Source: Candidatus Heimdallarchaeum aukensis
GTDB lineage: Archaea; Asgardarchaeota; Heimdallarchaeia; Heimdallarchaeales; Heimdallarchaeaceae
Direction: 5' to 3'
DNA length: 64,000 bases
Assembly: GCA_021513695.1 (NCBI GenBank)
Contig: CP084166.1
Location: 1,792,001 to 1,856,000 of the forward strand
Shown piece by piece: positions 883-63,781 of this stretch (its first letter is position 1; each line of letters begins with the position of its first letter). Both the position numbers and the translations under genes were made by a program. Under the pieces are notes generated by a model. It saw nothing but the letters and a program-made list of their open reading frames with translations, made no database searches and had not been told where the DNA came from.

Positions 883-3330
883 ATGAGTACTGATAAGTTT
901 ATTAATCATCCTCTTCTTAAGCCTAACAAAGTTGAGCGTAGACTTTACCAGGAGACTATTTTTGCTTCTTGTTCCCGTGAGAATTCTTTAGTTATTCTTC
1001 CTACTGGTTTAGGTAAAACTATTATTTTTATTTTGCTTGTTGTTCATCGTCTTCAATTATTTCCTGATGGTAAAGTTATTCTTTGTGCTCCTACTAAACC
1101 TCTTTTGGACCAACATGAGCGTACTCTTAAGGATCTTCTAAATATTCCAGAGGATTCTATTATTCAATTATCTGGTCAGATTGACCCTGACAAACGTTCT
1201 TCTCTTTGGGATTCAGGTAAAATTTTTGTTTGTACTCCTCAAACTCTTCAAAATGATATTGTTCAAAAGCGTGTTTCTTTATCTGAAGTTGTTTTTCTTG
1301 GTATTGATGAGGCTCATAAAGCTGTTGGCGATCACAGTTATGTTTTTGTTGTTGACCAGTACATGAAACTTTCTCGTAATCCCTTAGTCTTGGGTATTAC
1401 TGCTAGTCCTGGAGCTGACCTCGACAAGATTCAACAGATTAAGGATAATCTTAAAGTTTCCAATATTGAGATTCGTGATGATTCTTCTCGTGATGTTAAG
1501 CCTTATATTCATTCTATTGACGAAGTTTGGGAAAGAGTTCAATTACCTTCTGAGTTTGCTTTTATTTTGAAAACTTTAAATGGTATGTTTAAATCTATTT
1601 TAATTGAGTTAAAAGAACTTGGTATTATTAGTTCTTCTAATCCTTCTGATTATCCTCGCCGAAAATTGTTAGGATTAAAGGAGATCATCAATCAGAAGTA
1701 TAGCAATCAGGTTGACAGTTCTTCTCGCTCTGAATACTTTAAGGCTATGGGGCTAGCAGGTAATTCTATCCGTTTATCTCATGCTATAGAATTAATTGAG
1801 ACTCAAGGCGTTCCTTCTTTATCTAAGTATTTTGAGTCTCAGATTAATGATCTTCGTATGGGGAAAGGTAGTCAAACTCTTCGTAACTTAATTTTTTCTG
1901 ATGAGATTCAACGAGTCTTAAAAGCTTTACATAAGCTTGAAGAAGATAATATTATTCATCCTAAGATTTCAAAGTTAAAAGAATTAGTTGAAACTGAAGT
2001 TCGTTTCAATCCTGATAATAGAATTCTTGTTTTTGCTCATTATCGTGTTACAGCTAAGGTTATTGCCAAAGAATTGGAGAAGATTGATGGAGTTAGAGTT
2101 CATTGGTTTGTTGGTCAATCTTCTGTCCGAGACAAAGGTCTTTCTCAGAAGGAACAGATCGAGATTATGCAAGCTTTTCGTCGTGGAGATTATAATGTTC
2201 TTGTTTCCACCAGTGTTGCCGAGGAAGGTCTTGACATTGGTGAATGTGAGCTCGTTATCTTTTATGACTCTGTACCTAGTGCCATTAGATTGATTCAAAG
2301 AAAGGGTCGAACAGGCAGAAGGAAAAAAGGTAAAGTTATTTTGCTTATTGCTGAAGGAACAAGAGATGAGGGCTATTTTTGGGCTTCCAAGCGTCAGCTT
2401 AAAAAGATGAAGGGTATTGTTAATGAATTACAGAATAACAAACAATCTGATAAACAAAGAGATTTAACTGAATTCTTTGCTGATTCAGTTAGCGATACTG
2501 AACCTACTGTTTCTTCAGAGTCAAAAATCCATAAGGATTTGAATAAAGAAGTTGAAAGCACCAAACCTAAATCTGTAGTAGATGTTCCTAAAGGTGACCA
2601 GGTTTCAATCATCGTTGATTCTAGGGAAAAGAATTCAACTATTGTTAAGCATTTAATTAATAAAGGTGTCAGTATTTCCTTTTCTAAACTTGATTTTGGT
2701 GATTATGTTTGTTCTGACCACGTAATAATTGAGAGGAAGGAAAAATCCGATTTTATTAATTCTATTATGGACAAGAGATTATTCAGTCAAGTTAAACAGC
2801 TTGTTGAAGTTTGTTCTAATCCCATTATTATTCTTGAAGGCGATTTTAGCATTTTCAAGACTTCTCTTCATCCTCATGCTACTGCAGGAGCAATAGCTTC
2901 AATTGCTACTGATTTCAAGATTCCTATTATTTATACTAATAACCAAGAAGAGACTGCAGAGATTCTTTATGCTATTGCTAAGAGAGAACAAATAGAAAGG
3001 AAAAGGTCAATTTCTATCAACATGAAGAAAGGTATTGGCTTGAAACATCAATTAGAACAAACTTTAACCACCTTTCCTAACGTCGACTATAGGATAGCCA
3101 AAAGAATCTTAAAGAAGTTTGGAAGTTTGAAACAAGTTGTTAATGCTAAAAGAGAAGAATTTATTGAGGTTCAAGGTATTGGAGAAAAGATTGCTGACGA
3201 GTTAATTGAATATATTTATAGCGATTATAATGAAATAGAAACGGGAGAGGGTATTGGAGAAACTATTGAAAACATTGAGTGGCTGAAAAAAGAACTTGAG
3301 AAGAAAAAAAAGAGTAAAGGTGCCAAATAG
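883..3330 (+). CDS. hef: Hef helicase-nuclease (long archaeal XPF: DEAH-box helicase N-terminus, ERCC4/XPF nuclease plus HhH2 C-terminus)
   Basis: 815 aa. Walker A 'PTGLGKT', DEAH box 'GIDEAHKAVG', helicase C motifs 'VSTSVAEEGLDIGECELVIFYD' and 'QRKGRTGR'. C-terminal 'IVDSREKNS...ERKEKSDFINSIMDKRLFSQ' matches the ERCC4 nuclease signature, followed by helix-hairpin-helix repeats. Confidence 0.8.
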   Translation: MSTDKFINHPLLKPNKVERRLYQETIFASCSRENSLVILPTGLGKTIIFILLVVHRLQLFPDGKVILCAPTKPLLDQHERTLKDLLNIPEDSIIQLSGQIDPDKRSSLWDSGKIFVCTPQTLQNDIVQKRVSLSEVVFLGIDEAHKAVGDHSYVFVVDQYMKLSRNPLVLGITASPGADLDKIQQIKDNLKVSNIEIRDDSSRDVKPYIHSIDEVWERVQLPSEFAFILKTLNGMFKSILIELKELGIISSSNPSDYPRRKLLGLKEIINQKYSNQVDSSSRSEYFKAMGLAGNSIRLSHAIELIETQGVPSLSKYFESQINDLRMGKGSQTLRNLIFSDEIQRVLKALHKLEEDNIIHPKISKLKELVETEVRFNPDNRILVFAHYRVTAKVIAKELEKIDGVRVHWFVGQSSVRDKGLSQKEQIEIMQAFRRGDYNVLVSTSVAEEGLDIGECELVIFYDSVPSAIRLIQRKGRTGRRKKGKVILLIAEGTRDEGYFWASKRQLKKMKGIVNELQNNKQSDKQRDLTEFFADSVSDTEPTVSSESKIHKDLNKEVESTKPKSVVDVPKGDQVSIIVDSREKNSTIVKHLINKGVSISFSKLDFGDYVCSDHVIIERKEKSDFINSIMDKRLFSQVKQLVEVCSNPIIILEGDFSIFKTSLHPHATAGAIASIATDFKIPIIYTNNQEETAEILYAIAKREQIERKRSISINMKKGIGLKHQLEQTLTTFPNVDYRIAKRILKKFGSLKQVVNAKREEFIEVQGIGEKIADELIEYIYSDYNEIETGEGIGETIENIEWLKKELEKKKKSKGAK

Positions 3331-3354
3331 TTTATTTTAGCCTTCAACTCTATA

Positions 3355-4038
3355 TTATTCTACAATTGTCCCTACTTGCTCATTATTTAGTACTTTGAGG
3401 ATATTTTCAGGGTTTCTTCCGTTCACGAATGCTATTTTTTTCTTTGAACGTTTTAATATTTCACACCCTACTTTGTCAAAAAGGGCATAGTTTCCTGGTT
3501 CTTCTTCTTGTTTTATAATTATTGAATAGAATTCATCCATTGTGAGCTTATCAAATGCTTTCGCGTCTGAATATTTATCTGGATCTTTGTCATATACTTT
3601 TTCCACATCACTTAAATTTATTACAATATCTGCTTCCCACAGTTCTGCTAATAGAGCTGATACAGCATTTGTTGATTGTCCAGGTTGTAAACCCCCCGAA
3701 ACAACTATTTTATTTGTCGACAATGCCTTTAATGCTTCATCAAATGATCTTGGGACTGCCCCATATGCATGATTTTTTAGCGCAGATATAAATAGCAGTG
3801 CATGCATTCGCGAAGCTTCTACTCCCAGTAAATCTTGATAGGTGAAATTTCCTCCTATTTTTCTGCTTACTTTAATTATCTTTCTTGCTAGTTTACCTCC
3901 TCCAACAACGATCAATATTTGATAACCCTTATCTATTAACTTGTTAATAACTTCAAGATAATTCTCTATTAGTTCAGTGTTCAATTCACCATCTTGATTA
4001 TAAAGTAAAGACCCACCTATTTTCAAAACTACTTTCAT
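3355..4038 (-). CDS. pyrH: UMP kinase (archaeal PyrH, amino-acid-kinase fold)
   Basis: 227 aa. Begins 'MKVVLKIGGSLL'; 'LIVVGGGKLAR' and 'VVSGGLQPGQSTNAVSALLAE' motifs typical of archaeal uridylate kinase. Confidence 0.8.
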   Translation of the reverse strand: MKVVLKIGGSLLYNQDGELNTELIENYLEVINKLIDKGYQILIVVGGGKLARKIIKVSRKIGGNFTYQDLLGVEASRMHALLFISALKNHAYGAVPRSFDEALKALSTNKIVVSGGLQPGQSTNAVSALLAELWEADIVINLSDVEKVYDKDPDKYSDAKAFDKLTMDEFYSIIIKQEEEPGNYALFDKVGCEILKRSKKKIAFVNGRNPENILKVLNNEQVGTIVE

Positions 4039-5500: not shown

Positions 5501-6879
5501 AAACTTTCTATTGTTTCCTTTATAGTTTTTTTACCTTCTTTCAACAGTTTTTCGGCTTCATCCATTGTATTCGCTTCAACAAAGATTCTAAAGATAGGTT
5601 CTGTTCCAGAAGGGCGGATCAACATCCATCCATTATCATAAATTGCCTTTAGTCCATCAATGGTGATTAATTCTGTGTAACCTTTAACCCTCGAACTAAT
5701 AGCATCTAACACGTTACTTTTTAGATTATTGGGACATTCTACTTTATCCTTTAATTGAGCATATTGCGGGAGTTCATTCATTAATTCACTTAGTGTAGAA
5801 GATGAAATTGATAAGATATTTGCCATTAGAGCGCCAGCCATTGCTCCATCCCTTACTGGAACATGAGGAGAATAAAAAAGCCCACCATTTTCTTCTCCAC
5901 CTAGGATTGCATTAAGCTTTTGCATCGTTCTTGAAACGTAAATACACCCAACTTTTGTCCACTCAACTTTCCCTCCTATTTCTTCCGCAATATCTGTTAC
6001 CACGGAAGATGAACTAACAGGAGTCACAAAAAGTTTGTTTTGTTCATTTTGTAAAATCATTTTCTCAAAAATGGCTATAGATCTATCTCCCCAATAAACA
6101 ACACCTCGTTCATCACCAAATATTGCTCGATCAGCATCTCCATCATGAGCAATAGAGAAATCAGCATTAACACTTTTTGCTGTTTTTGCCATCTCAGTAA
6201 GTAATTGCGGTGAAGGTTCAGAACCTCTCCCGGGAAAATGTCCATCAAGAGTAGTATTTATGGAAAAAACTTTCATTCCTAATTCTTTAAATAAATAAGG
6301 AGTTACTAAACTTCCTACACCATTTCCACCATCAACAACAACTTTCATCTTTTTCTTTGATATCTTATCAACATCAACAAAACTAATTATTTGATCAATA
6401 TATTCATCTATCATATTAATTTCAGTAACCTCACCCAACTTTGTCCAGTCGCTAGAATAAAAATCACCCTCCTCTAGTTTTTTTTCTACTTTTATTTGAT
6501 CTTCGACACTTAATTCAACACCATCATTAGAAATAACTTTTAATCCATTAAACTGGGGAGGATTGTGACTCGCTGTAATCATTATACCAAGTTTAGATCT
6601 TAATTTTCTTACAGCAAATTGTGTTAAAGGAGTTGGAACTAATCCCAAATCTATTACATCAACTCCACTAGACAATAATGTAGAAATAACCGCATATTTG
6701 ATGAAAGGGCTACTAGTTCTTGCATCAGAACCTACAACTACAACTCCTTTATTTTCAATAAAAGATGAAATTGCAGATGTGAGTTTATTTACGAAAGAAT
6801 TTGTTATGAGTTCACCTACTATCCCTCGAACTCCATTAGTACCAAAATATTTACGCTCCGTCATTTCTAATTTTAACAC
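5494..6879 (-). CDS. Phosphohexomutase of the PGM/PMM/GlmM family (paralog 1)
   Basis: 461 aa. Active-site serine loop 'TASHNPPQFNGLKV', N-terminal 'GTNGVRG', sugar-binding 'GEENGG'. Phosphoglucosamine mutase and phosphomanno/glucomutase cannot be told apart from sequence alone. Confidence 0.7.
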   Translation of the reverse strand: MLKLEMTERKYFGTNGVRGIVGELITNSFVNKLTSAISSFIENKGVVVVGSDARTSSPFIKYAVISTLLSSGVDVIDLGLVPTPLTQFAVRKLRSKLGIMITASHNPPQFNGLKVISNDGVELSVEDQIKVEKKLEEGDFYSSDWTKLGEVTEINMIDEYIDQIISFVDVDKISKKKMKVVVDGGNGVGSLVTPYLFKELGMKVFSINTTLDGHFPGRGSEPSPQLLTEMAKTAKSVNADFSIAHDGDADRAIFGDERGVVYWGDRSIAIFEKMILQNEQNKLFVTPVSSSSVVTDIAEEIGGKVEWTKVGCIYVSRTMQKLNAILGGEENGGLFYSPHVPVRDGAMAGALMANILSISSSTLSELMNELPQYAQLKDKVECPNNLKSNVLDAISSRVKGYTELITIDGLKAIYDNGWMLIRPSGTEPIFRIFVEANTMDEAEKLLKEGKKTIKETIESFQ

Positions 6880-27874: not shown

Positions 27875-27997
27875 GAGGGGATTGTCGAGCGGTCAAAGAC
27901 GACAGGCTTAAGATCACAGATTGCTTCTTTGAAAAAGGGCTAGAGAAGGAACCTGTTCCTTAGTGGTTCGGGAGTTCGAATCTCCCTCCCCTCACCA
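27875..27997 (+). tRNA. tRNA-Leu(UAA), class II, with about a 38-nt intron at 37/38 (about 27913..27950); 3' CCA encoded
   Basis: Acceptor GAGGGGA/UCCCCUC, D-stem GUC/GAC with long D-loop, anticodon stem ACAGG (27902-27906) pairing with CCUGU (27952-27956), loop CUUAAGA with anticodon UAA at 27908-27910, long variable arm, T-arm GGGAG-UUCGAAU-CUCCC, discriminator A, then CCA. The 64-aa ORF at 27963..28157 overlaps and is spurious. Confidence 0.65.
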
Positions 27998-30591: not shown

Positions 30592-31127
30592 TCTTTTCTC
30601 CTTTTGTCAATTACTTTTTTTCCTTTTTTACAAGGTTCAATTTCAACTCTTGCATTAGAATAACGTTTTTTTCTCCCCTTTCCTCCTGTTATTTTATCCA
30701 AGCATATTGCTAAAGCTGCTACCTCTGAATGCGGTTGATGTCCTATAGCTATATTGAAGTCTGCTAAATGATAAAACTCTATTTCCACTTTTGCTCCTCC
30801 AACAATAACTAGGACATCCTTTTCCACTTTTCTCAAATCATCTATTACATCATCTATTTCTATTCCAAACATAGTTAAGTGAACAACAACTCCTCCTTCT
30901 CTTTTCCATTCTTTAATATACTGTCTTTCATTTTGTGTATACTCAACATTGAAATTTCCCCCCCAACTTTCAACTATTTGAGCAACAGTTTGTTCTATTC
31001 TATTGTCATATTCTCCACTATACACTATTTTTGAAGCTCCAAATGCTCTTGCCACTAGAGCTAGATGACTTGACATACGTTTATCTCGCGTTATTCTGTG
31101 ATGTAATCTTAAAACGACTATCTCCAT
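30588..31127 (-). CDS. trm56: tRNA (cytidine56-2'-O)-methyltransferase aTrm56
   Basis: 179 aa. 'MEIVVLRLHHRITRDKRMSSHLALVARAFGASKIVY' matches the aTrm56 N-terminus ([27 protein letters not shown]). Confidence 0.7.
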   Translation of the reverse strand: MEIVVLRLHHRITRDKRMSSHLALVARAFGASKIVYSGEYDNRIEQTVAQIVESWGGNFNVEYTQNERQYIKEWKREGGVVVHLTMFGIEIDDVIDDLRKVEKDVLVIVGGAKVEIEFYHLADFNIAIGHQPHSEVAALAICLDKITGGKGRKKRYSNARVEIEPCKKGKKVIDKRRKE

Positions 31128-39302: not shown

Positions 39303-39467
39303 TAGTTTTCTCCTCGTGCACTCTTAACTATGTTTTTGACAACGACTCTAAAACCCTTTTTTTGTTTTGTTATTCAATATCTTTTTATCATATATATACA
39401 AGGAAAAATCAAAATCAAGAGAAGTATAATGAAACTTACACTGTAGAAAAATTAATTGACAAAACTA

Positions 39468-51611: not shown

Positions 51612-53066
51612 CTAAATGTCTGTTCTATTAAAGTCGATATTTTTATCTCTAAACTTTGGATGAAACTTTTTAATAACCTCAATAGGAATACGTTTAAGTA
51701 CACGTTCTGGATCGTCGAAAATGGATAATAGTTCCCATCCTAAATCTAAGCTTTCAAAAATTGTTCTGTCTTCATGGTAATCTTGGTTAATGAATTTTTC
51801 TTCAAATAAATCAGCAAATTGTAAGGTTTTTCGATCTAAATCCGAAAGGCTTTCTGAACCAACAACAGCAACAAGATCCCTTAGATCCCTACCATCTGCA
51901 TATAAAGCATACAACTGGTCAGCCACATACTTATGATCACTACGAGTGGAATTAATACCTATACATTCCTTCATAAGACGGCTTAAACTAGGTAAAGGAT
52001 TAATAGGTGGGTACAAACCCTTGCGGTTTAAGCCTACATCAATGTAGATTTGGCCCTCTGTAATATAACCAGTTAAATCAGGAACTGGATGGGTGATGTC
52101 AAAATTTGGCATTGTTAAGATTGGAATTTGCGTAATGGAGCCTTTTTTACCGCGTATTTTTCCTGCTCTTTCATATATTGTAGCAAAGTCGCTGTATAAA
52201 TAGCCTGGGTATCCTCTTCTTCCAGGAACTTCATTTCTTGCAGCTCCTATCTCCCTCAGTGCTTCTGCATATGTGGTCATATCAGTTAATATTACTAATA
52301 CTTGGTATCCTTTCTCAAAAGCTAGATATTCAGCAGCTGTTAGAGCAATTCTGGGAGTTAGTAATCTTTCTACAGCAGGATCATCTGCAAGATTCAAGAA
52401 CAGCACAGTTCGTTCTAAAGCACCGGTTGATTCAAAATCATCTCTGAAGAATCTTGCTTCGTCAGCTGTTAACCCCATGGCACAGAAAACGACTGCAAAA
52501 TTTTCTTCTTCACCCAAAACTTTTGCTTGTCTTGCAATTTGGGCTGCGATTCTGTTGTGAGGTAACCCACTACCTGAAAAGAGAGGTAATTTTTGTCCTC
52601 TAACCAATGTAAGCAGCGTATCAATAGTAGAAATACCTGTTTGAATAAACTCTTTTGGATATTCTCTAGCTGAGGGATTAATGGGAGCTCCATTTATGTC
52701 CAGAATTTTTTCTACAGCAACAGGGCCTCCTCCATCAATTGTTATTCCTCTTCCACTAAAAACTCTTCCTAATATTTCGTGGCTCACTCCAAACTCCATT
52801 GTACGGCCTAAAAATCGAACTCTAGTTTTATCTGTCTCTAAACCTCTTGTTCCTTCAAAAACTTGAACTACGGCTAAATTTCGGGATACTTCCAGTACCT
52901 GTCCATTTCTTTTTTCTCCATCTACTGTTTCAATTTGAACAATTTCACCATATGAAACTCCACCTTTATTCCTTAAGTCAACAAACAGTAGAGGTCCACT
53001 TACTTGTTGGACTGTTTGAAATTCTCTATAATTTAATTGTAACTTTTCGTCCATTTTTTTCACCAC
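51612..53066 (-). CDS. atpB: A/V-type ATP synthase subunit B
   Basis: 484 aa. '[15 protein letters not shown]', 'YPGYLYSD' and '[11 protein letters not shown]' are diagnostic of the regulatory B subunit. Confidence 0.9.
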
Positions 53067-53068
53067 GC

Positions 53069-56000
53069 TTAACTCAAATCCTCCACGCCTACATCTGTAG
53101 GACTGATACCATCAATTTCAGCAATAAGAGCGTTTATTTCCTCTTCTACATCTTCTTGTACGATATACTTCATTCTTGCGATTTTAACCACAACATCGTG
53201 CTCAAATATGTTCTTGACCTCTGCACCTCTCTGATACAGATCATTCGCCTTATGATAGAAACTTAATATCGCCTTTAGCATAAGATATTGTTTTTGCATA
53301 CTACAAAACGAATCGACTTCATGAAAAGCATTCTGCTGTAGAAAAGACTCTTTTATTATTCTAGCAATTTCTAAGACGATTTTCTCTTTAGGGGGAAGAG
53401 CATCAGGACCTACAAGAGAAACAATTTCAGAAAGTTCTTTATCCTTTTGTAACAATGCCATAGCTTCTGCACGCAATTCTGGGAATTCAGGATCAATATT
53501 AGTTGAATACCACTCTTGTAATACGTTCCAATATAATGTATAGCTTAAAAGGTAATCAATAGCAGGAAAATGTCTTCTTGCGGCAAGATCCTTGCTTAAT
53601 GCCCAGAACACTTTTACTATCCTTAAAGTGTTTTGAGTAACTGGCTCACTAAAATCGCCTCCAGGGGGGCTCACAGCTCCAACAACTGTAATACTAGCAG
53701 TTCTTGGTTCTGATCCTAAAGTCAGCACTCTACCAGCTCTTTCATAATATTGTGCAACTTTTGAAGCCAAATAAGCAGGAAAACCTTCTTCACCAGGCAT
53801 TTCTTCTAGTCTTCCAGATATTTCTCTTAATGCCTCAGCCCATCGGGAAGTTGAATCAGCCATCATTGCTACATCATAACCCATATCTCTAAAGAATTCA
53901 GCCATTGTTATTCCAGTGTAAACACTTGCTTCTCTTGCAGCTACAGGCATGTTGGAAGTGTTAGCTATTAATGTAGTTCTATCCATTAGGGGGCCACCAG
54001 TATACGGATCAACAAGTTTAGGGAACTCTCTTAAGACATCAGTCATCTCATTTCCTCTTTCACCACAACCTACATAAACAACTATCTTAGCATCCGACCA
54101 TTTAGCTAGTTGATGCTGTGATACAGTATTATGTAGGGTGAATGGTAATTCTCCTCCAACAAAGTTGTGATATTCGTCTACTGTTAAATCATAGACATCA
54201 GTTTCCTGTTCGATTATTGAAATTTCTTTTATTCTATCGAAAAACACATGTTCTACTAATTCCTGAAGATAGGCTCGATTACTAAAATCATCCAAAGTGT
54301 TAGTATCAAAATTAGAATTTGTTACATCTACCACTTGTTCTATTACGACAGAACTATTATTTGACTGAACAACTTTTCTTGCTAATTGTGTAATATTATT
54401 AGTTTCTTGATACTGGTATAGTTGGTACATTTTTTCATGTTTAGTGGTATTATAATGAGAGAACTTTTCTATCAACTTCAGTAGTTCTTTCTCTTTTATT
54501 TCGAAAACAAAGTTGTTTTGATCTTTTAGATTATAAACAACACCTAATCGTGTTAGGAGATAAGAAAATTCTGATAATTGGAATTTGTTTTTATGATATA
54601 TTTGAAGAGTAGTATCATTGAACGATGTATTTATTACAAAGTAACCATTTAGATAATGAACCAACAGCTCATCGGATGATTGCATCAAGAGTTTTGGAAC
54701 ACGAACATCAGAATCTGTCAAACTGCCTTTAAGTCCAAGATATTGAAGGAATTTAACAACTACAGAACTTGAAAAATGTACAAAATTTTCCCCTATTGTG
54801 TTATCATAATCATAGGCACAAAATAGTCCAAATATTTGCTCAGTAAGATCATTAAAACGATTCAACAAAAAATCTGAATTTGTGCTAAAGAAAATAGTTT
54901 CATCTCTAATGATACCATTAGCTGTAAAGAGTCCTAACCATTCAGCAAGTTCATTAGTCATGTAAACAGGTAACTTCACAACTGAAGAATTAGTTTCTTC
55001 ACGTAATACAGAAACACTGATTTCTGGTTCTCCAGCTAATTTAGTTAGTTTATGTAAAAATGCTAAATTAGGCTCTTTTTCTTTGTTTAAATATTTCATT
55101 AAAATGTTGAATGAAACATTAGTTTTTTGAGCAATTTCTTCCAAAGACATTACTTCACTTAGTTTGTTGATAATTTCTTCCATCCTCATTAAAGCTTGTG
55201 TGTCAGCAACTCTAAGTGATAGATCGATATCATAGGCACTAATAGGATTTTGTTGTCCTTTAATTTGAAGATGGCGAGGAACAATAAGCAAATCACCGGG
55301 TCGTAGATACTGTGATTCTACCTCTTCTATTTTGCGTCCATTGAATCTAAAAAGTTTATGAACAGGTGTAACAGTAACTTCTCTTCCACTATCTGTTTTT
55401 ACACTTACCAGTCTTGACGTTTTTCCACGATAAATGTAACTTGCTTTTTGCTCAACATATGATTCTCCATTAAAACTTAGTATAGAAAGGTCACCGGTAA
55501 TTTTTATCAGAGTTTCATTTTCATTATCTAATTCAATCAATCCATCATTTTGAATAAAACTTTTATAAAGATCCTTTATTTCTACCAAACTTCCATCGCT
55601 TAGGAATACTGGAGTGGAACCAACAACACATTTCCCAGTCCCAAAACCGCCGGGAATTGCTCCAGTTCCTCCTTTTGCAATAGGGGCGAAAGTATCAAAT
55701 ATTCTTTGCCCAGTTATCAGGGGGACATTACTTGGTAAACGTTTATATATTGGTCTAGGAGTTCGGACAGGCCATTTATGGAAAAATTGTAAATCTATCT
55801 TTTCTCCACTAGCTGTTAACACTGTTGCTGCAGTTTCATCTATGGTGTAATCGCCTGCAGGAGCAATGTATTCTAGAGTTCCCTTTATATAAGGAGGTAC
55901 CAACAGCTTAAAATCAACTGTAGGCGTTTCAGGAATAATTCCTAATATATCTCCGCCTACCACCTTATCTCCTTTCTTAAGTATTGGACGAAAATCCCAT

Positions 56001-56356
56001 AATTTTTTGTGATCTAATCCTGGAACATCAATTCCTCGAGAGATATTGTCTCCTGTCAATTTTTGTATTTCTGGAAGAGGACGTTGAATTCCATCATATA
56101 TTTGACGAAGTAAACCAGGACCTAGCTCTACTGAAAGAGGATTATTTGTGGGGTACACAGGTTCTCCGGGTGTTAGACCGTCAGTACTTTCATAAACTTG
56201 AATTGTAGCTACATCACCTTCTAGTCTAATTATCTCACCAACTAGTCGTTCATTCCCTACTCTTGCAACATCATAAAGTTTAGCCCCAAGCATGTTAGAT
56301 GCTTGCACTACAGGACCTGATATTTTATTTATTACTCCAACTTTGGCATCATTCAT
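53069..56356 (-). CDS. atpA: A/V-type ATP synthase catalytic subunit A, interrupted by a 501-aa intein in the P-loop
   Basis: 1095 aa against the usual 580-590. The N-extein ends '...[10 protein letters not shown]'. The intein runs from C243 ('[14 protein letters not shown]...') to '...FTLHN' at residue 743. The C-extein resumes '[28 protein letters not shown]...'. Splicing restores GGFGTGKT. Confidence 0.9.
54128..55630 (-). mobile_element. Intein (VMA-type, P-loop insertion site) with a LAGLIDADG-like homing endonuclease domain, probably degenerate
   Basis: Begins with Cys after GK and ends with His-Asn followed by Thr. Block G-like '[15 protein letters not shown]'. Two LAGLIDADG-like motifs, '[10 protein letters not shown]' and '[12 protein letters not shown]', both carry Asn where the catalytic Asp/Glu is expected. 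Confidence 0.8.
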
Positions 56357-60884: not shown

Positions 60885-61286
60885 TCATTTAAGCTTATTG
60901 AGAGTTTCCAACAAGCTTTTTATTGCATTATTAATAGAAATTATTTCATCTATCTTATCAGAAATTTCTAGCTGCTTATTTAATTGACTTAATTTTTTCA
61001 TGATTACACTTTGTGTTTCAAGTAGAGTTTCATTGGTAATATTGCTACCATGCTGCGATATCTGGTACTGGGATTTGACTTGATTCGAGGGCATTTGCTT
61101 CCTTTGCTGTAATTTTGATTTTTCATCAACCAATACATACTCTTGTTTACATTTAACACAAATTGTTTTACCACCATACTCATATAAGGGAGAATAGCAT
61201 TTAGGACAAGCCTTATTTAACATTTTTCCACCCTTCAATAGTATGTCTGCCCCTGCTTTTGAATAATCGTCAGAACTGTTGTTCAT
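60885..61286 (-). CDS. UPF0148 / autoantigen-p27-family zinc-ribbon protein
   Basis: 133 aa. 'ADILLKGGKMLNKACPKCYSPLYEYGGKTICVKCKQEY' matches the family core (LL.G..ML...C..C..PL....G...C..C), followed by a coiled-coil tail. Confidence 0.55.
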   Translation of the reverse strand: MNNSSDDYSKAGADILLKGGKMLNKACPKCYSPLYEYGGKTICVKCKQEYVLVDEKSKLQQRKQMPSNQVKSQYQISQHGSNITNETLLETQSVIMKKLSQLNKQLEISDKIDEIISINNAIKSLLETLNKLK

Positions 61287-61324
61287 TAGTTTCTTGTATT
61301 TTTTTTCATTATATAATATTTATT

Positions 61325-61340
61325 ATAGAAAATAAAATTA
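61325..61340. repeat. Left copy of the 16-bp direct repeat flanking the IS-like element
   Basis: 'atagaaaataaaatta' is identical to 62360-62375. The preceding 4 nt are nearly identical too (tatt vs taca). Confidence 0.6.
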
Positions 61341-62359
61341 TGTTTACTCAATAGACTTGGGTTACACTTTTGGGCAATAGAGAAACATAGGGGTGATTCA
61401 TAAATCTTTCTCCTGGGGTGAGGAAGTTAAGAGATTGGTGAGGACGACTAAAATTGTAGTAAGAGCGGTAGTAGGAGAGATCAGCGTTGCAGTATTTTAG
61501 ACCTAATCTTTCCATCTCACGGATGATGGTTGGGTCCCATGTAGTCTTTCTACTTTTCCACATGTTTCGGGGTGAAAAACTCTAGCTCTGATGTGTTTTA
61601 TTTCCTCTGTTTGGCACCAACGGGAGAAGGTACTTGTTCCTCCTCTAACGGAAGAGAAGAGTGCTCCATTGTCCGTGAGGATAGACTCGGGGTAACCGTA
61701 CTCTTTTATTGCTTCCTCTAGCAAACTTATTATCTGCTCTTTTTTTGGCGCAAAAGGGTGGAATTTAGCTCCCAGACAGAATCGTGAGTGGTCGTCTATC
61801 AAGGTTATGAGGTGGAGATGTTGTCCCTGTTCTTCTACCCAGAATGGCCCTTTCACATCTATTTGCCAGAGTTCGTTAGGTTTTTGACGTTCAAAACTCT
61901 TGTATCGAGGTCTCTTCCTCTTTTTTCTATTAACCCATAAAGGAAGACCTAACTCTTTTATTACTTTCGTCACTGTCGTCTGAGAGAGTGCTTTTCCTTC
62001 TCTCTTCAACAAATAAGCTATCTTCTCCACATTCATTCCTTGTTTTATTCTTAACTCCCTTATCCTCTCTTTTAACTCCTCATCTACTTTTTTGTGTATA
62101 GTTTTTGGTCTGGAAGATCTATCTTTCCACCAACCATTCTCCTTCAGGGTTCTCTCTGAACCTCTTCAACCACTTATACACAAACTTCCTACTCACCATA
62201 TACTTGTGAGCTATCTCTTTTATCTTTTCTCCTTCCAAAGCTTTTTTAACCACAATCTTTCTTAGTTTCTCCAGGTTACGTTCGGGTTTGTTCATAATAT
62301 ATCACTTACCCACGTAACCCACTTCTATTTATTTGTTACCAATGTGAGTTGAGTATACA
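61341..62359 (-). mobile_element. IS-like element, about 1.0 kb, with imperfect terminal inverted repeats and a frameshifted DDE transposase; higher GC than its surroundings
   Basis: Ends are 'TGTTTACTCAA...' (61341) and '...TTGAGTATACAA' (62359). The reverse complement of the right end, TTGTATACTCAA, matches the left end, and both ends contain a nearby GGGTTAC motif. Flanked by identical 16-bp direct repeats. The interior is visibly more G+C-rich. Confidence 0.6.
61348..62295 (-). pseudogene. DDE (rve-family) transposase/integrase split into three reading frames: HTH orfA 62295..62119, core 62165..61503, C-terminal 61563..61348
   Basis: orfA begins 'MNKPERNLEKLRKIVVKKALEGEKIKEIAHKYMVSRKFVYKWLKRFRENPEGEWLVER*' (HTH). 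The next frame is shifted by +1 relative to orfA and carries '...NELWQIDVKGPF...HLITLIDDHSRFCL...ILTDNGALFSS' (DDE core). A third frame carries 'YNFSRPHQSL', the rve C-terminal motif. Confidence 0.65.
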
Positions 62360-62375
62360 ATAGAAAATAAAATTA
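62360..62375. repeat. Right copy of the 16-bp direct repeat flanking the IS-like element
   Basis: 'atagaaaataaaatta' is identical to 61325-61340. Confidence 0.6.
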
Positions 62376-62404
62376 GAATAAAATATTCTTCAAATTATAC
62401 AATT

Positions 62405-63781
62405 TTATTCAATTAGTTTTTCAAGCTTTTCAACTATGTTGGAGATCCACTTAAATTGTTCCTTTGTTGGAGCTTCGAAGTATATTCTAATTTTTGGTTC
62501 TGTCCCTGATTTTCTAATCAATATCCAAGTTCCATCTTCAAAATCGAACCTTAAACCGTCAAAATCTAAGACGTTCTTTTTATAGGAAGCACAGATTGTG
62601 GTTAACTGATTCTTTAGTGAATTGAAAATAAGGTCTGCATTTTCTTCTGAAACAAGGTAGGATCTTCTTTCTGAAAAAAAGCTTGGAATTGTTTTAATTC
62701 TAGTATGAAGTGAACAGTTTTTTTCCACCAATTCTTTTAAAATTACAACTGCGCCAAATAATCCATCAATCCACAGCCCCCACTCTAAAGGGAATATGGG
62801 TTTCCATGGTTCAGCAGCAAAAACAACTTGTTCTCCATTATTAATCAACTCTAAAACCTTAGTATGAAGATCACCAAGGGGAGCACGAACAACTTTTACA
62901 GGATAAGCATTTAATGAATTATCGATACATGTCGACGAATCTATGCTAAGGACAACAATGCCGTCTTTCTTCGTAGTAAGTGATAACTGAGCAAGCAAAG
63001 CATTTACTCTTGACAACTCTATAAAATTACCTTGTTCATCAATAAATGAAACTCTGTCTCCATCTCCATCATGAGCAATACCAATAACACCTTTTTCTTT
63101 ACATAAATTAATAAGCACAGATAGATTTTCTCTACTTGGCTCTGCTAAACGACCAGGAAAACTCCCATCAATACTAGAATTAATTGTAATAACGTTAAAA
63201 CCTAGAGCAGAAAAGATTTTTGGGGATAAAAGGCTCATTGGTCCATTTGCACAGTCAACAATTAAAGTTCTATTATCAGCTTTAAAGTTTGTTTTTTGAA
63301 TTATAGCATTAAAATATTGAGAATTGGCATCGACTATTTTTCTTTGTTTTTTTATCTCATTCCAGTTAGAATGCAAAATTGATTTAAAAAGAGCTATCTC
63401 TTTTTCAAGTTTATTTTGCTCTTTTTCTGTAAATTCTCGCCCATTATATAATAATTTAATTCCATTATACTCTGGGGGGTTGTGAGAAGCAGTAATATAA
63501 ATTCCTATTTTATGTTCTGGTTTCTGTGACATAAATGCAATAACTGGAAAAGTGCATAATCCAACATCAAACACTTGTGCTCCATTTATAGATATCGTTG
63601 CCAATGCATATTGAGCTAATGATTCTGAACTTGTTCTAGCATCATGTCCCACAATAATTCCCTCATTAGGGAACATTTTAACCACAGCCTGGCTCAATTT
63701 TATTATAAGACCAGCTGTAACCTTCTTTCCGAATAATCCTCGTATTCCTGCAGTACCAAATAATTTCGTAGGAGAGTTCAT
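62405..63781 (-). CDS. Phosphohexomutase of the PGM/PMM/GlmM family (paralog 2)
   Basis: 458 aa. 'GTAGIRGLFGK', active-site 'TASHNPPEYNGIKL', 'IAHDGDGDR' metal-binding loop. Same architecture as the 5494..6879 gene but clearly divergent. Confidence 0.7.
   Translation of the reverse strand: MNSPTKLFGTAGIRGLFGKKVTAGLIIKLSQAVVKMFPNEGIIVGHDARTSSESLAQYALATISINGAQVFDVGLCTFPVIAFMSQKPEHKIGIYITASHNPPEYNGIKLLYNGREFTEKEQNKLEKEIALFKSILHSNWNEIKKQRKIVDANSQYFNAIIQKTNFKADNRTLIVDCANGPMSLLSPKIFSALGFNVITINSSIDGSFPGRLAEPSRENLSVLINLCKEKGVIGIAHDGDGDRVSFIDEQGNFIELSRVNALLAQLSLTTKKDGIVVLSIDSSTCIDNSLNAYPVKVVRAPLGDLHTKVLELINNGEQVVFAAEPWKPIFPLEWGLWIDGLFGAVVILKELVEKNCSLHTRIKTIPSFFSERRSYLVSEENADLIFNSLKNQLTTICASYKKNVLDFDGLRFDFEDGTWILIRKSGTEPKIRIYFEAPTKEQFKWISNIVEKLEKLIE

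Follow-up and report, generated by a model that had tools for sequence, protein, structure and literature searches.

A frameshifted IS481-family insertion sequence with 16-bp target-site duplications in Candidatus Heimdallarchaeum aukensis

Positions 61341–62359 of the window, i.e. the 64,000-nucleotide stretch of Candidatus Heimdallarchaeum aukensis DNA analysed here, are an IS481-family insertion sequence (IS) of 1019 bp with its transposase gene on the minus strand. It is very probably a mutationally inactivated, non-autonomous copy of a 1010-bp IS481 element that is resident in multiple copies in the genus Ca. Heimdallarchaeum. The active element would encode one 312-aa transposase with HTH and DDE (rve) domains and would carry TGT...ACA termini, terminal inverted repeats of approx. 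11 bp and a subterminal motif. It presumably integrates by cuts about 16 bp apart, which would create target-site duplications (TSDs) of 16 bp, and appears to prefer AT-rich intergenic DNA of the pattern T-run / N16 / A-run.

Ends and insertion site

The window IS is a defective variant of the 1010-bp element and matches copies in its sister species, Ca. H. endolithica PR6, over its full length. It is flanked by a perfect 16-nt repeat, ATAGAAAATAAAATTA, with one copy at 61325–61340 and the other at 62360–62375, which, as the gene reads, adjoin the IS at its 3' end and its 5' end, respectively. In the window, this 16-mer was found only twice, even with one mismatch allowed, and 0.06 occurrences would be expected by chance. 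The right terminal inverted repeat (61341–61366) was located by inverted-repeat detection. It starts with TGTTTACTCAA, contains the subterminal motif ATAGACTTGGGTTAC and also includes the transposase stop codon (61348–61350); its termini are kept in all copies. The left one (62314–62359) was delimited from the inverted repeats and by comparison of the copies. Its reverse complement starts with TGTATACTCAA, and its subterminal motif, GTAACCCACTTCTATT at 62314–62329, is shifted inward by approx. 20 nt.

The two termini TGTTTACTCAA and TGTATACTCAA match in 10 of 11 positions, and the subterminal ATAGA..TGGGTTAC motif common to both ends (61350–61365 and 62314–62329) is 88% complementary. TGT...ACA ends, namely TGTATACTCAA ... 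TTGAGTAAACA, are present in the window copy and in 23 of 23 PR6 copies. The preliminary description had proposed a discrete IS with perfect direct and imperfect inverted repeats, and its boundaries, both kinds of repeats and the shared subterminal motif were all recovered. A third TGTATACTCAA at position 30936 was rejected as an IS end, being a chance match inside a coding sequence. Searches of the window with blastn and tblastn for further copies or MITE-like solo ends revealed nothing beyond the element itself. With regard to a viral or mobile-element carrier, no relative of the IS occurred among the IMG/VR contigs.

The IS entered an 83-bp spacer that separates the gene of a phosphoglucosamine/phosphomanno-mutase from that of a p27-like zinc-ribbon protein. 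In three independent sister-lineage assemblies (L029, L030 and L031, H. endolithica-type), the same two genes enclose a single 16-mer and no IS. A comparison with such an uninterrupted locus had been suggested beforehand, and the empty site sets the direct repeats, previously given as 16–20 bp, to exactly 16 bp. Both IS junctions were reproduced at 100% identity by the independent short-read Logan contigs L026 and L028 (SRR15988954 and SRR15988958). Within the IS, these contigs extend over 24 nt and 175 nt only, and what they reproduce is its junctions.

The interrupted transposase gene and its family

Three pieces of the transposase were identified by ORF and Pfam analysis, all on the minus strand. 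They comprise the HTH orfA, the rve core and the C-terminal YNFSRPHQSL part that had been recognised before. Piece 1 (62119–62295) covers the N-terminal 58 codons with HTH_28/HTH_23 and ends at a premature stop that results from a +4 insertion. Piece 2 (61503–62165) contains HTH_32 and the rve catalytic core; its frame is open from about 62165 with the first ATG at 62036 and is displaced by +1 relative to piece 1, as originally stated. Piece 3 (61348–61563) comprises the C-terminal rve_3 with YNFSRPHQSL and lies in the frame of piece 1. The codon starts of orfA and of the C-terminal piece are congruent to 0 mod 3 and the core alone is displaced. The pieces are not each in a different frame, as had been assumed, but occupy two frames separated by two breaks.

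Both breaks were defined in an alignment of 24 copies. The first (62129–62136, minus strand) is a 4-nt tandem duplication, TGGT-TGGT, in place of the single TGGT in intact copies. The second (61531–61535, minus strand) is a 5-nt insertion, ACCCA (TGGGT on the plus strand), which directly follows the GKVERLHGT helix with the catalytic E. Reading returns to the frame of piece 1 at this point, because the insertions add up to 4 + 5 = 9 nt. Thus, the window copy corresponds to the intact 1010-bp form plus these two insertions, and the 1019-bp form holds TGGTTGGT and GGGACCCAAC. Removal of the 9 nt gave an open reading frame whose product is identical to an intact PR6 transposase in 307 of 312 residues. 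The repaired protein has the catalytic triad D145 (WQIDVKG), D207 (LTDNGA) and E248 (GKVERLH). Distant homologues with 50–65% identity are uninterrupted at both sites (EGEW(W/Y)K(D/E)RS and GKVERLHGTI(I/L)RE), and since they read straight across, the +4 and +5 insertions are derived.

As the two insertions flank the catalytic core on both sides, the core is out of frame and the native start should yield only a 58-aa HTH peptide. Any movement of the window copy would then depend on an intact copy that provides transposase in trans. The copy had been described as decayed. It is defective, but "decayed" is too strong a word for an ORF that is otherwise open and nearly identical to the intact one.

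The 177-aa ORF of the window is identical to UJG39842.1 of Ca. H. aukensis, and UJG39841 and UJG39842 are two of the three small ORFs annotated at the locus in GenBank. The three are fragments of one pseudogene. The exact 58-aa and 177-aa products are encoded by no independent contig on record. Among the 15 of 48 members listed for the transposase cluster, the proteins from H. aukensis are only fragmentary ones.

The NCBIfam model for IS481 (NF033577, cutoff 224) scored 233.9 bits with the intact PR6 copy and 231.9 bits with the repaired window copy. Pfam matches were obtained for HTH_28, HTH_32, rve (E = 1e-16) and rve_3, and a weak one for LZ_Tnp_IS481. The NCBIfam models for IS3, ISNCY and IS21 all remained below their own cutoffs. 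At NCBI, the intact proteins of PR6 are annotated as "IS481 family transposase". IS481 elements are reportedly 0.95–1.3 kb long with a single transposase ORF and no programmed frameshift. This layout was found in 12 PR6 copies of 1010 bp with one ORF, and the window copy departs from it by the two insertions only. Judged from profile, termini, single ORF and DDE triad, the predicted transposase is a member of the IS481 family, with its fold deduced from the Pfam rve match. Together with the boundaries and the TSD, the IS481 score bears out the initial view that the element is an IS.

The succession of an HTH-encoding ORF and an rve ORF in different frames superficially resembles the usual orfA/orfB arrangement of IS3 elements, whose rve core is related, and the IS3 model gave a match below its threshold. 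In IS3 elements, frameshifting by -1 is programmed at a slippery heptamer rich in A, and the TSDs are 3–5 bp long. Here, in contrast, the displacement is +1 and arose by mutation, namely by the 4-nt duplication that is missing in intact copies. The TSD is 16 bp long, the element measures 1.0 kb, and the IS3 model NF033516 reached 105.7–107.9 bits with a cutoff of 160, whereas the IS481 model exceeded its cutoff. The alignment with intact copies and the profile scores refute -1 frameshifting of the IS3 type, and the chance that this is an IS3-family element is practically nil.

Copies in Ca. H. endolithica and recurrence of the insertions

A search of genome contigs for further copies returned 24 PR6 loci and one distant relative from Gemmataceae, and the counts given here are those of PR6. 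PR6 harbours 23 full-length copies, 12 of which are 1010 bp long with one intact 312-codon transposase ORF. Nineteen PR6 copies match the entire window IS with 96–98% identity. The intact copies sought according to the preliminary description do exist in the sister species.

Exact flanking repeats of the 23 PR6 copies were 16 bp long in 14 cases, 17 bp in three and 15 bp and 14 bp in one each, while four copies had none. Their sequences all differ, and the target pattern over 15 sites is a symmetric T-run / N16 / A-run. The 16-nt repeat, which had been considered unusually long, is therefore the modal TSD of this element and resembles that of the long-TSD branch of IS481 (PMC10045372). Most TSDs of the family measure 6 bp within a range of 2–15 bp, and a subset lies close to 15 bp (PMC10045372). 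With its mode of 16 bp and range of 14–17 bp, the element overlaps the 15-bp class and its mode lies 1 bp past the upper limit quoted from ISfinder.

The same +4 and +5 insertions were detected on at least five sequence backgrounds with 85–98% identity, among them those of two species and of a pair of independent contigs from JGI metagenomes (L033 and L035). The latter were the informative ones among four contigs from a metagenome scan with a conserved 20-mer; L034 is a distant IS481 with 66% identity and L032 is unrelated. Substitutions among insertion-bearing copies are mostly synonymous, with dN/dS values of 0.08 (window against L018) and 0.18 (window against L022). The two insertions are not obligatorily linked, because forms with a single one occur (L014, L015 and L016). 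All four combinations of the indels occur among near-identical PR6 copies that differ by 0–6 SNPs, and there are mosaic SNP blocks among the copies, such as the 3' block of L004 that is common to L007–L011. One old dead lineage does not predict this recurrence together with the low dN/dS; gene conversion or repeated origin is required. The indel alleles have probably spread among the copies by gene conversion.

The frame breaks might instead be artefacts of assembly or polishing. Reads of other copies would then have supplied the interior, and the true copy would be intact. The IS is a repeat, and the short-read contigs of the source samples end inside it. For the genome of H. aukensis, SPAdes contigs were scaffolded with Nanopore reads and polished with Pilon at 346x coverage (PMC8813620), and polishing with multi-mapped reads could also give the four indel combinations in PR6. 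However, the insertions are complex strings of 4 and 5 nt and not homopolymer slips, private SNPs of the window copy lie on either side of them, and the polishing itself had the high coverage just mentioned. The same alleles emerged from three assembly routes (Canu with Illumina for PR6, SPAdes for H. aukensis and JGI Illumina for L033 and L035) and are therefore real. An artefact is considered unlikely.

It was also proposed that the gene uses +1 recoding. The frame breaks would then be bypassed in translation, by +1 followed by -1 frameshifting or by short tRNA hops, and the form with both insertions would be a functional gene with low expression. The identical insertion pair on several backgrounds and the low dN/dS values are in line with this. 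Read from the sequence, a shift of the peptidyl-tRNA from UGG to UGG (4 nt) and from ACC to ACC (5 nt) would restore the exact wild-type peptide; however, the landing codon in the PR6 allele would be ACA and not ACC. Neither site has an X XXY YYZ or shifty-stop motif. Downstream RNA folding was no better than that of shuffled sequences (z = +0.19 and -0.34) and weaker than in two control segments of the same gene. A simple uninterrupted ORF is present in the 12 intact PR6 copies and in every distant homologue, forms with one insertion exist, and gene conversion from functional copies explains the low dN/dS equally well. We know of no precedent for two independent recoding events in one mRNA. 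Recoding is very improbable.

A further reading builds on the occurrence of the alleles in two species and in independent metagenomes, on such diverged backgrounds and with purifying selection, seen as low dN/dS, between insertion-bearing copies. The +4/+5 pair may be a maintained configuration, which has a very small chance of being right. Gain and loss of the short duplications by slippage could act as a reversible on/off switch at the DNA level and throttle the transposase supply. Alternatively, the pair could serve as a template on which two tRNA hops, from UGG to UGG and from ACC to ACC, recreate the wild-type protein.

Composition, transfer and related elements

The inactivated IS481 copy has a GC content of 40.3% compared to 32.1% for the whole window and ranks top among all 1019-bp bins. 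GC3 of the repaired ORF is 41.7%, while 39 host ORFs have 21.8 ± 3.4% (z = +5.8). The next-richest segment encodes the A-type ATPase B subunit (51612–53066) with a GC3 of 22.7%, and its GC is accounted for by amino-acid composition. Such an effect was rejected for the IS, which is raised at third positions. The element had been described as compositionally foreign, and both windowed GC and GC3 agree with this.

Between the window and PR6, dS is 0.076 for the IS but 0.48–0.96 for host orthologues, and the two species share an ANI of 88% (PMC8813620). The window lacks an insertion at the sites that L005 and L018 occupy in PR6. As the dS of the IS is far below that of the host genes, the IS moved between the species after their split. 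The exchange took place between two co-occurring Heimdallarchaeum species well after they had diverged, and the IS is much younger than that divergence. The empty site in H. endolithica-type contigs and the low dS support an arrival at the window locus later than the split from H. endolithica, in agreement with the recent acquisition suggested earlier. The window copy would accordingly have inserted into the mutase/p27-like spacer of Ca. H. aukensis after that split.

The closest known elements are the archaeal ISMac4 and ISA0963-1, which are likewise approx. 1 kb long with a single HTH and rve DDE ORF, TGT...ACA ends and TSDs of 15 bp (PMC10045372). The present element differs in its modal TSD of 16 bp and its Asgard (Heimdall) host, and the window copy in its frameshifts. 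This grouping is based on TSD length and termini. IS481EU elements of the parabasalids Trichomonas and Histomonas also combine an IS481-like DDE transposase and TGT...ACA ends with TSDs of 15–16 bp in several families (PMC10045372), a likeness drawn from published descriptions. They are eukaryotic and have discrete TSD classes of 4, 15 and 25 bp within one family, whereas one class of 14–17 bp was found here. A 2026 survey places IS481EU beside an archaeal-dominated IS481 clade (PMC13343696). The IS1202 group (ISNCY) has an rve-type transposase and long, discrete TSD classes including 15–17 bp (PMC10045372), but the present element scored only 83–87 bits with the ISNCY_2 model of NCBIfam (cutoff 250).

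Overall, this is a routine finding of a damaged insertion sequence of a familiar type. IS1202 elements are larger and their transposases longer. The IS481EU transposons of eukaryotes are thought to derive from the IS481 type with long TSDs and TGT...ACA ends. A minor puzzle is the +4/+5 allele pair that recurs among the copies. The analysis documents an IS481 element with 16-bp TSDs in Heimdall-group archaea (Asgard) and adds interspecies transfer of the IS, its T-run / N16 / A-run targeting and the annotation of the locus as a pseudogene.

Structure and family of the element

Reading of positions 60900-62900 together with a repeat search delimited a discrete element of 1019 bp at 61341-62359. 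Perfect direct repeats of 16 nt, ATAGAAAATAAAATTA, flank it on either side (61325-61340 and 62360-62375), and this 16-mer occurs only these two times in the 64 kb with up to one mismatch allowed, against a chance expectation of 0.06. The repeat search gave the termini TGTTTACTCAA and, reverse-complemented, TGTATACTCAA. A second, subterminal motif, ATAGA(C/A)(T/G)TGGGTTAC, lies immediately behind one terminus and about 20 nt deeper at the other.

The entire coding potential of the element is on the minus strand. ORF and domain searches yielded an N-terminal HTH piece (orfA) of 58 codons at 62295-62119, a core piece with a Pfam rve match (E = 4e-17) in a frame open from about 62165 to 61503 and a C-terminal piece of 71 codons with rve_3 at 61563-61348. 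The core ORF of 177 aa has the same sequence as UJG39842.1 of Ca. Heimdallarchaeum aukensis, and a neighbouring 55-aa ORF matches UJG39841.1. Codon starts modulo 3 are 0, 2 and 0 for the HTH, core and C-terminal pieces. Thus, the core is +1 relative to orfA, in agreement with the preliminary description, and the C-terminal piece has returned to the frame of orfA. This makes two breaks and two frames rather than the three different frames of that description.

The NCBIfam model NF033577 (IS481 family transposase; cutoff 224 bits) recognised the intact protein from PR6, a genome of the sister species Ca. H. endolithica, with 233.9 bits and the window protein, after removal of the inserted bases, with 231.9 bits. 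NCBI labels the intact PR6 proteins as IS481 family transposases. The length of 1.0 kb, the one ORF and the TGT...ACA ends are consistent with the IS481 family of ISfinder as well. Models for IS3, ISNCY, IS21 and IS630 all scored under their respective cutoffs. The metagenome contig JABUBN010004101.1 carries a distant element of the IS481 type with about 66% identity to this IS, and zero copies were found in the viral contigs searched.

Two insertions in the transposase gene

With one genome searched per species, the complete PR6 genome (CP084167.1) contained 24 loci with the element, 23 of them full-length and 85.6-97.6% identical to the window copy. Wu et al. 2022 (PMC8813620) recorded transposase families of up to 27 copies in these genomes and gave no description of the elements. 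The remaining locus, L024, carries two partial fragments (2938-3670 and 5514-6315) of about 80% identity, about 2.6 kb apart, which are older, decayed insertions. The window flanks were absent from all recovered PR6 copies; hence, none of these occupies the window site.

Twelve PR6 copies are intact, with 1010 bp and a single unbroken 312-codon ORF. In an alignment of 24 copies, the window copy differs structurally from this form by exactly two insertions; the preliminary reading of an IS that is now broken is supported. At site 1 (62129-62136), a perfect tandem duplication of 4 nt has turned GAA TGGT GG into GAA TGGT TGGT GG; at site 2 (61531-61535), CATGGG AC has become CATGGG ACCCA AC. Because the insertions add up to nine bases, the frame is regained past the second one. 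In silico removal of these bases brought the element to 1010 bp and reopened the 312-codon ORF, whose product is identical to the PR6 protein at 307 of 312 residues and retains D145, D207 and E248. Homologues at 50-65% identity read through both sites without a break, e.g. EGEWYKERSSRP and GKVERLHGTIIREM, and therefore the uninterrupted form is ancestral and the insertions are derived.

The preliminary description had also offered +1 recoding. By this, the frame breaks would be bypassed and the insertion-bearing form read functionally. Re-pairing of UGG to UGG and of ACC to ACC would indeed recreate the wild-type peptide. However, two successive events would be needed, and sequence inspection found neither a slippery heptamer nor a shifty stop at either break. 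RNA folding of 111-nt segments, starting just upstream of each break and reaching about 95 nt downstream, was no better than that of shuffled sequences (z = +0.19 and -0.34), compared with z = -0.99 and -1.43 for two segments of this gene used as controls. Given the intact single-ORF copies, mutation is the economical explanation of the breaks. The +1 recoding alternative is not supported, and a functional reading of the insertion-bearing form is very improbable.

It is odd that the same two insertions occur in many backgrounds, including the window copy and PR6 copy L022, which have both. Within a PR6 clade whose members are at most 6 SNPs apart, L004 and L012 have neither, L014 has only the 4-nt insertion, L015 and L016 only the 5-nt insertion, and L018 and L019 both; because these copies are nearly identical, polishing of the Nanopore assembly with short reads may have blurred which allele belongs to which copy. 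The 5-nt insertion was also found in L020 and L021 (90% identical) and the 4-nt insertion, as TGGTTAGT, in L023 (85% identical). Two JGI Illumina metagenome contigs, assembled independently, carry the 4-nt (TGGTTAGT; L033) and the 5-nt insertion (L035), and thus the alleles are real and widespread. On the opposite strand, site 1 reads ATGGT-TGGT-GG and site 2 ATGGT-TGGGT-TCC; both insertions look like perfect or imperfect duplications behind one shared pentamer. With dN/dS values of 0.08-0.18 among them, the insertion-bearing copies are not one old, neutrally drifting lineage. SNP blocks are mosaic, the 3' block of L004 being common to L007-L011, which argues for gene conversion between copies. 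Such conversion would shuttle indel alleles between copies and bring in selected substitutions. Slippage loss of a tandem duplication is likewise easy.

Target-site duplication and empty sites

Exact flanking repeats of the 23 PR6 copies measured 16 bp in fourteen cases, 17 bp in three, 15 bp in one and 14 bp in one; four copies had none. Every copy's repeat has a different sequence. The 16-bp repeat is therefore a target-site duplication that is normal for this element, not an unusually long one. IS481 duplications range from 2 to 15 bp and are mostly 6 bp (Kojima and Bao 2023, PMC10045372), so the present 16 bp exceeds this range, which derives from ISfinder, by no more than one base. In archaea, ISMac4 and ISA0963-1 duplicate 15 bp, compared with 16 bp here, and the eukaryotic IS481EU shares the TGT...ACA ends and duplicates 15-16 bp (PMC10045372); long duplications are thus already known from one branch of IS481.

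Three of the PR6 copies without a repeat (L014, L021 and L023) could have lost it by recombination between copies. The fourth, an intact copy at L001, lies at the exact centre of a 476-nt inverted duplication (L001:2461-4423; 83% complementary), and weaker inverted arms reach further outward. This arrangement may be an IS-associated inverted duplication or an insertion between diverged inverted paralogues.

The window copy is flanked by genes for a phosphoglucosamine/phosphomanno-mutase and a p27-like zinc-ribbon protein. The same pair is adjacent in three independent H. endolithica-type assemblies (L029, ENA; L030, JGI; L031, NCBI), with a mutase 88% identical to that of the window; the 'Pacearchaeota' MAG bearing this mutase is a Ca. 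H. endolithica strain according to Wu et al. (PMC8813620). At this uninterrupted locus, the spacer carries a single 16-mer (one TAATTTTATTTTCTAT) and matches the window base for base minus the IS and one repeat. The duplication is thereby fixed at exactly 16 bp, instead of the 16-20 bp first given. Conversely, the sites of PR6 copies L005 (around 39390-39410) and L018 (48250-48261) are unoccupied in the window, where both flanks align at 84-91% identity, and therefore the insertions are lineage-specific in both species.

Fifteen sites with exact 16-bp duplications (61325-61340 in the window, L002-L010, L015-L017, L019 and L022) were T-rich at -7 to -1 (up to 14/15) and A-rich at +16 to +20 (up to 13/15). 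The symmetric pattern of T-run, 16-mer and A-run would be expected of a dimeric transpososome on bent AT-rich DNA.

Composition, age and origin

The element has a G+C content of 40.3% compared with 32.1% for the window, higher than in any other 1019-bp bin. In the repaired transposase ORF, GC3 amounts to 41.7%, versus 21.8 ± 3.4% (z = +5.8) in 39 host ORFs with 200 or more codons, none of which reached its value. The element thus truly deviates in composition, and does so at synonymous sites, and the foreign composition first described is borne out.

The second-richest stretch (51.8-52.9 kb) belongs to the A-type ATPase B subunit (51612-53066, minus strand). Its G+C excess lies at the first and second codon positions, with a host-like GC3 of 22.7%; unlike in the IS, the high G+C is an effect of amino-acid composition. 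The adjacent catalytic A subunit (53069-56356, minus strand) has 1095 aa because of an intein (Pfam Intein_splicing, residues 253-743). The window encodes archaeal proteins, e.g. one at about 31.4 kb that appears from its sequence to be a PAN-type AAA ATPase. Rfam tRNA matches at 627-737 (111 nt) and 27875-27994 (120 nt), uncalled by ARAGORN, are probably intron-containing archaeal tRNA genes.

The two species share an ANI of 88% (PMC8813620). Host dS between the window and PR6 was 0.48-0.96 for the eight orthologue pairs adjoining L005 and L018; transposase dS between the window copy and L001 was 0.076. No insertion site among those examined was common to both species. From these values and sites together, the IS lineages split long after their hosts. 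Either the IS passed between co-occurring vent archaea, or a common pool supplied both. The GC3 anomaly and the low dS support foreign and recent acquisition, recent being relative to speciation. Except for the number of frames and the repeat length, the preliminary description was largely correct.

The feature is an ordinary defective IS481-family copy carrying the family's long (16-bp) target-site duplication. Its insertion into an intergenic spacer of Ca. H. aukensis is recent relative to speciation and probably neutral for the p27-like gene, as the AT-rich, TATA-like stretch AATAAATATTATATAA is still present between the IS and the start of this downstream gene.
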